From: Escherichia coli
Lineage (GTDB): Bacteria; Pseudomonadota; Gammaproteobacteria; Enterobacterales; Enterobacteriaceae
Direction: 5' to 3' (one strand)
Assembly (NCBI RefSeq): GCF_003334405.1
Contig: NZ_QOWM01000005.1
Length of the DNA: 64,000 bases
Below, piece after piece: positions 56,051 to 56,180 of this stretch. A program made the position numbers and the translations under genes. Positions within the stretch are counted from its first letter, which is position 1; each line of letters opens with the position of its first letter. Below the pieces are notes generated by a model. It saw only the letters and a program-made list of their open reading frames with translations. It was not told the DNA's origin and ran no database searches.

Positions 56051-56180
56051 AATGTCTGCCGCGTGATGGCTGTCACGCGGTATTTCGTTTCGTCACGTCA
56101 AAACTGACGACAGCCTGTTTTTCGTCAGAGTTTTGAATAAATAGTGCCCGTAATATCAGGGAATGACCCCACATAAAATG

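Follow-up and report, generated by a model that had tools for sequence, protein, structure and literature searches.

Comparison of the mdtP-fdhF intergenic region across enterobacteria indicates that the short repeats noted there in a 64,000-nucleotide stretch of Escherichia coli DNA (the window) very probably serve the sigma-54 promoter of fdhF as its upstream activating sequence, to which the formate-responsive regulator FhlA binds. The first-pass annotation of the window had offered the repeats as a candidate FhlA enhancer, and this proposal is supported by the presence of fdhF downstream, a sigma-54 site, a match to the published half-site and a core that is conserved in 78 of 79 orthologs. 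The enhancer is an already described element, known since 1989, and the observation is correct but ordinary. Birkmann and Bock reportedly described the fdhF upstream activating sequence of E. coli in 1989, and Schlensog et al. (1994) are said to have found that FhlA binds upstream of fdhF, between hyc and hyp, and in the spacer that separates hycA from hycB; its binding at the fdhF upstream activating sequence was reportedly also found by Leonhartsberger et al. (2000). In the primary literature, purified FhlA is reported to footprint on the fdhF element, and deletion of the element to abolish formate induction; the site is reported to lie at about -110. The fdhF enhancer is a textbook case of how the formate hydrogenlyase pathway is controlled through sigma-54 in response to formate, and finding it again has little discovery value. 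The use of the present check is that an inference drawn from the raw sequence proved right and that the element could be trimmed to a conserved core, 56090-56128.

The fdhF control region and its repeats

A 501-bp query spanning the repeats, covering the end of mdtP and the start of fdhF, found a match in 5420 of 5426 complete E. coli genomes. The RefSeq annotation of the same stretch in K-12 MG1655 gives the order mdtO-mdtP-fdhF-yjcO. Between the window and MG1655 there was a single base change, at 56039 inside mdtP, and the mdtP-fdhF intergenic region (56051-56247) is identical in the two. The gene downstream of the repeats is fdhF, a member of the formate regulon, which has an ATG start at 56248 and an in-frame TGA selenocysteine codon at 56665-56667 and ends at 58395 (Table 1); fhlA is annotated in E. 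coli K-12. Further along, just downstream of yjcO, the window carries a tandem array (59181-59668; 4.3 copies of a 113-bp unit, 96% matches) with REP/BIME-like palindromes (GCCTGATAAGACGCG..., GCCGGATGCGGC-like).

Table 1. Features of the fdhF control region, in coordinates of the window
Feature	Position	Strand	Basis
mdtP terminator-like hairpin, TGCCGCGTGA-tggc-TGTCACGCGGTA, then TTTCGTTTCG	56057-56082	+	Terminator scan and RNA fold
TGTCAC, tentative extra upstream half-site	56071-56076	.	Moderate GWCA conservation in orthologs
ATTTCGT, first tttcgt copy	56082-56088	+	7/8 match to the published half-site cATTTCGT; lineage-specific
Putative enhancer core A, TCGTCA-C-GTCA-AAAC-TGACGA	56090-56110	.	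Top conservation block, regulon-wide unit, best matrix match
Putative enhancer element B, TTTCGTCAG	56120-56128	.	TCGTCA at a fixed 17-bp offset; columns at least 85-95% conserved
Presumed enhancer-promoter spacer with second moderately conserved block, GTTTTGA...CCGTAATATCAGG...CCCACA	56130-56175	.	Conservation profile, many genera
Sigma-54 promoter TGGCATAAAAGATGCA, -24 TGGCA / -12 TGCA	56181-56196	+	Conserved in 78/80 orthologs; published sigma-54 binding
fdhF, formate dehydrogenase H	56248-58395	+	ORF list and RefSeq annotation of the identical K-12 locus

The sigma-54 promoter that the first-pass annotation had assigned to fdhF is confirmed, its -24/-12 element (TGGCATaaaagATGCA / TGGCATAAAAGATGCA; -24 GG at 56182-56183) being the published ChIP-seq/ChIP-chip site. 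Sigma-54 ChIP-seq in E. coli assigns the motif GTGGCATAAAAGATGCA to fdhF (PMC4591121), ChIP-chip in Salmonella gives TGGCATAAAACATGCATA for fdhF (PMC3844500), and gSELEX with the RpoN holoenzyme places a peak within the fdhF-mdtP spacer (PMC8743547). The repeats had been located about 60-110 bp upstream of the -24 element, which is slightly off: the noted span, 56085-56140, lies 42-97 bp upstream of the -24 GG, and the conserved core lies 54-92 bp upstream of it. A distance of 41 in the ChIP-seq table (PMC4591121) suggests a transcription start near 56207; relative to this start, the noted span extends from -122 to -67 and the conserved core from about -117 to -79.

The repeats themselves are present as noted, and the string that had been quoted for them, tatttcgtttcgtcacgtcaaaactgacgacagcctgtttttcgtcagag, lies at 56081-56130. 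The repeat finder returned two direct repeats, TTTCGTCA at 56088-56095 and 56120-56127 (32 bp apart) and the pair GTATTTCGT/GTTTTTCGT at 56080-56088 and 56117-56125. It also returned two inverted pairs that had gone unmentioned, TCGTCA/TGACGA (56090-56095/56105-56110) and CTGACGA/TCGTCAG (56104-56110/56122-56128). Direct copies therefore exist as described, but the unit is better seen as a TGWCGA-type half-site occurring in both orientations. By itself, the 8-mer TTTCGTCA is not rare in the window (6 matches, 2.8 expected). Three TCGTCA/TGACGA hexamers within 40 bp form the sole such cluster in the 64 kb, a cluster of three being reached in 1 of 150 first-order Markov simulations, and the degenerate half-site TKWCGW, with eight matches in 46 bp, likewise forms a cluster unique in the window, more than six being found in none of 150 simulations.

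The two ends of the noted span fared less well. At the 5' end, the first copy, ATTTCGT, is not conserved outside Escherichia and reads ATTTCAT in E. albertii. It coincides with the T-rich tail of the mdtP terminator, and its inclusion as an enhancer repeat (tatttcgt, 56082-56088) is not borne out; the copy is probably dispensable and doubles as the terminator T-tail in Escherichia. At the 3' end, the stretch 56129-56140 falls outside the repeat core. The mdtP hairpin folds as RNA at -19.6 kcal/mol (z -3.6), and none of 200 shuffled sequences was as stable. Together with its T-rich tail (56057-56095), it adjoins and partly overlaps the 5' edge of the fdhF enhancer, and its descending arm holds TGTCAC where other genera keep GTCA.

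Conservation of the half-site cluster

Orthologous control regions were collected in one reference-genome scan with the first 139 residues of FdhF, which gave 80 loci from more than 25 enterobacterial genera, including Escherichia, Salmonella, Citrobacter, Klebsiella, Kluyvera, Enterobacter, Kosakonia, Lelliottia, Pluralibacter, Franconibacter, Atlantibacter and Arsenophonus; the loci are phylogenetically related, so that the counts given here are counts of non-independent events. The -24/-12 element is kept in 78 of the 80. When the loci were aligned on the -24 element, the far flanks were unrelated and the upstream genes differed; in the 79 orthologs so aligned, the block that stands out is TTCG(A/T)CACGTCA-N4-TGACGA followed by TTTCGTCAG. 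Its first part, core A, is the most conserved block of the intergenic region and comprises three half-sites of the TGWCGA/GWCA type, among them the inverted pair CGTCA-N4-TGACG, and spans about -117 to -97. The first-pass annotation had held that a lack of conservation in orthologous fdhF upstream regions would speak against an enhancer, but the core TCGWCA-C-GTCA-N4-TGWCGA is kept in 78 of the 79 anchored orthologs and at a fixed distance. The shorter unit YGWC-N5-TGWCGA (CGTCAAAACTGACGA in E. coli, 56096-56110) was likewise found in 78 of 79 anchored loci, preceded by TCGACA in 56 and by TCGTCA in 19.

Element B, which contains the second ttcgtca copy, is a minus-strand TGACGAAA half-site at about -87 to -79. 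The distance from the start of TGWCGA to element B is 17 bp in 73 of 78 orthologs, with an exact TCGTCA in 71 and TGGTCA or CCGACA at the same offset in three others, and the offset holds even where the sequence between differs. Between the central half-sites, the four to five bases are free to vary (AAAAC, AATAT, ATTTT, CTTTT, AATCT), and nearly all changes within half-sites are A/T swaps at the W position (TCGTCA/TCGACA, TGACGA/TGTCGA). From the core unit to TGGCA, 70 loci have a distance of 85/86 bp and eight (L011, L029, L046, L059, L069, L071, L076 and L081) one of 76/77 bp; the two classes are about one helical turn apart and keep the same helix face. The data thus show a half-site cluster at 56090-56128, made up of TCGTCA, the inverted CGTCA-N4-TGACGA and a further TCGTCA 17 bp on, in which the internal spacing is fixed and the distance to the -24/-12 element keeps its helical phase. 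Fixed half-sites, a free spacer and a conserved helical phase are together the signature of a protein-binding enhancer.

The 5' limit of the cluster is less sharp. A GTCA about 24 bp before the unit, represented in E. coli by TGTCAC (56071-56076) some two helical turns ahead of core A, may be a further half-site. GWCA stands ahead of the core unit at an offset of -24 in 35 of 78 orthologs and of -22 in 15 of 78, with differing upstream genes; counted over distinct upstream flanks, it occurs at -25 to -23 in 43 of 75, and its conservation is moderate only. In three loci, from Phytobacter massiliensis (L056), Entomohabitans teleogrylli (L078) and a Leclercia sp. (L082), the region about 60-200 bp upstream of position 1501 carries degenerate half-sites and a degenerate -24/-12 element, or lacks them, which suggests that FhlA/sigma-54 control may have been lost or changed in these lineages.

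Two readings in which the repeats are no protein-binding site were weighed against these results. If the repeats were a functionless chance cluster of a common oligonucleotide, the mild over-representation of the 8-mer TTTCGTCA in the window (8/100 shuffles) would be in keeping with this, but the hexamer and TKWCGW clusters are exceptional in the window, the motif is found again in other formate-regulon control regions, and the deep conservation at fixed spacing refutes chance; the probability of this reading is close to negligible. It is also extremely improbable that the inverted repeats work by folding into RNA or DNA hairpins, either as a second terminator against mdtP read-through (CUGACGA-loop-UCGUCAG, then AGUUUUGA) or as a cruciform. 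Inverted pairs are indeed present at 56104-56110/56122-56128 and 56098-56105/56129-56136, and a genuine terminator hairpin, whose T-tail is the first repeat copy, lies directly upstream. The terminator scan, however, gave this upstream hairpin only, and the RNA fold of 56086-56150 is ordinary (z -1.56; 17 of 200 shuffles as good). Nor do the orthologs preserve pairing: the four that have TGTCGA together with element B keep TCGTCA as its partner, so that no compensatory change is seen, and 52 pair TCGACA with TGACGA, which are non-complementary. Moreover, the block is conserved in genera whose upstream DNA bears no relation to the end of mdtP, and outside Escherichia the extended arm TCAAAACT/AGTTTTGA is not kept. 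A hairpin or terminator reading of the core was rejected on the missing covariation and the unremarkable fold energy.

Recognition sequence and other formate-regulon sites

Two published descriptions of the FhlA recognition sequence were compared with the region. The enhancer consensus CATTTCGTACGAAATG, attributed to Leonhartsberger et al. (2000), is given together with fdhF among the FhlA targets (PMC4987338); a 14-column matrix built from 13 characterised sites reads TGWC-RAWRAT-GWCA, i.e., TGWC-N6-GWCA (PMC7658346); and FhlA binding upstream of fdhF and hyc has been reported (PMC11291172). The half-site CATTTCGT (cATTTCGT) matches at 56081 (7/8), 56086 (7/8) and 56118 (6/8), which are the tttcgt copies originally noted; by chance, the 131 bp searched (56050-56180) should hold about 1.2 matches of 6/8 or better. 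For the full 16-mer CATTTCGTACGAAATG, the best match is 9/16 here and 9-11/16 in other E. coli sites. The best intergenic match to the matrix, at 56096-56109, scores 8.4 bits and is outscored by about 25 chance matches elsewhere in the window. The published descriptors fit an assignment to FhlA but are too weak as proof; it is the conservation that carries weight. For genome scans and for the design of formate-responsive promoters, it is relevant that only the half-sites of the published consensus can be recognised.

The unit YGWC-N5-TGWCGA was then compared with the 18-kb hydN-hyc-hyp-fhlA region of K-12 and with the region upstream of hyfA. In the 18 kb, it gave four matches against 0.28 expected, a number reached in none of 200 shuffles; these lie upstream of hydN (CGTCACTAGTGTCGA), in the hycA-hycB spacer (TGTCATTTTTGACGA) and in the hyc-hyp intergenic region (TGTCGATGATGTCGA). 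One match, CGACACGGGTGTCGA, lies upstream of hyfA. The unit was derived after four of the five matched regions had been viewed and the comparison is partly circular, the hycA-hycB match having played no part in building it. Within the 18 kb, the hyc-hyp and hycA-hycB regions hold the two densest clusters of TKWCGW. The hycA-hycB spacer of E. coli K-12 (11870-11924 of locus L002) contains a dense half-site cluster, TGTCATTTTTGACGAAAAC...GAAATGTCATTTTCGACACTCATCGACA, which is presumably the FhlA site serving the hyp promoter. In the window, the unit also matches at 17310-17325 and 31632-31646, inside the 3' end of adiA and phnD; no sigma-54 promoter was found near either match, and both were set aside as probably due to chance. 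One of the two is a palindrome, CGACAACAATGTCGA.

The recurrence of the unit bears on whether FhlA is the main user of the site. That the enhancer is real and serves chiefly another activator, such as the FhlA paralog HyfR or an as yet unnamed factor, is very unlikely. The unit does occur upstream of hyfA, hyf is reportedly activated by both HyfR and FhlA (as Skibinski et al. are said to have found in 2002), and the published FhlA consensus fits the fdhF region at the half-site level only. However, the unit is common to hyc, hyp and hydN, the classical FhlA targets, and dual use by HyfR would supplement control by FhlA, not replace it. In addition, fdhF is given as FhlA-dependent in three published sources (PMC4987338, PMC11291172, PMC3844500). 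Its induction is also reported to be lost when fhlA is deleted and hyfR is left in place.

Mechanism and relation to known systems

With FhlA as the activator, the element would work in the manner of other sigma-54 enhancers. Judging from what is known of enhancer-binding proteins, an FhlA oligomer would occupy the half-sites through its C-terminal helix-turn-helix domains (PMC11291172, PMC4987338), and formate bound at the N-terminal domain would stimulate the AAA+ ATPase. The roughly 50 bp of DNA in between would loop, allowing FhlA to contact the closed complex of the sigma-54 holoenzyme at 56181-56196, and this contact would lead to open-complex formation and hence to formate-induced, anaerobic transcription of fdhF. 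The spacer is presumed to be a looping or bending region. IHF assists at hyc, whereas a search of the fdhF spacer (56130-56175) for the IHF consensus WATCARNNNNTTR gave no match.

It is possible, but on the whole doubtful, that the architecture is more specific than the published 16-bp palindromic consensus, with an array of three to four half-sites of the TGWCGA type held at a set distance from the -24 element. The aligned loci suggest that such an array might comprise TCGWCA, GTCA-N4-TGWCGA, TCGTCA at +17 and perhaps GTCA at about -24, placed 85/86 bp or one turn less from the promoter. If this is true and is absent from the footprint papers, it would refine the placement of the FhlA oligomer along one face of the helix, and enterobacterial genomes could be searched for FhlA and HyfR sites with a better pattern.

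The element is the same as the known fdhF upstream activating sequence of E. coli, with which it shares the organism, the intergenic region, the promoter and a centre near -100 to -110. Nothing substantive differs; the limits given here (56090-56128, possibly from 56071) are set by conservation. The FhlA sites of hyc-hyp, hycA-hycB, hydN and hyfA resemble that of fdhF in combining YGWC-N5-TGWCGA with further TKWCGW half-sites beside sigma-54 promoters, but their additional half-sites differ in number, orientation and spacing. The fdhF arrangement is TCGWCA-C-GTCA-N4-TGACGA-N11-TCGTCA, whereas the hyc-hyp site serves two divergent promoters.

NifA (TGT-N10-ACA), NtrC at glnA and NorR (a triplet of GT-N7-AC) likewise use clustered dyad half-sites, which lie some 80-150 bp upstream of a -24/-12 element. 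Enhancers of sigma-54 activators act through DNA looping onto the closed complex, and multiple sites support the assembly of the oligomer (PMC4987338, PMC6615313). FhlA differs from NifA, NtrC and NorR in its half-site (TGWCGA / TTTCGT), and its activity is set by a bound ligand, formate, and not by phosphorylation.
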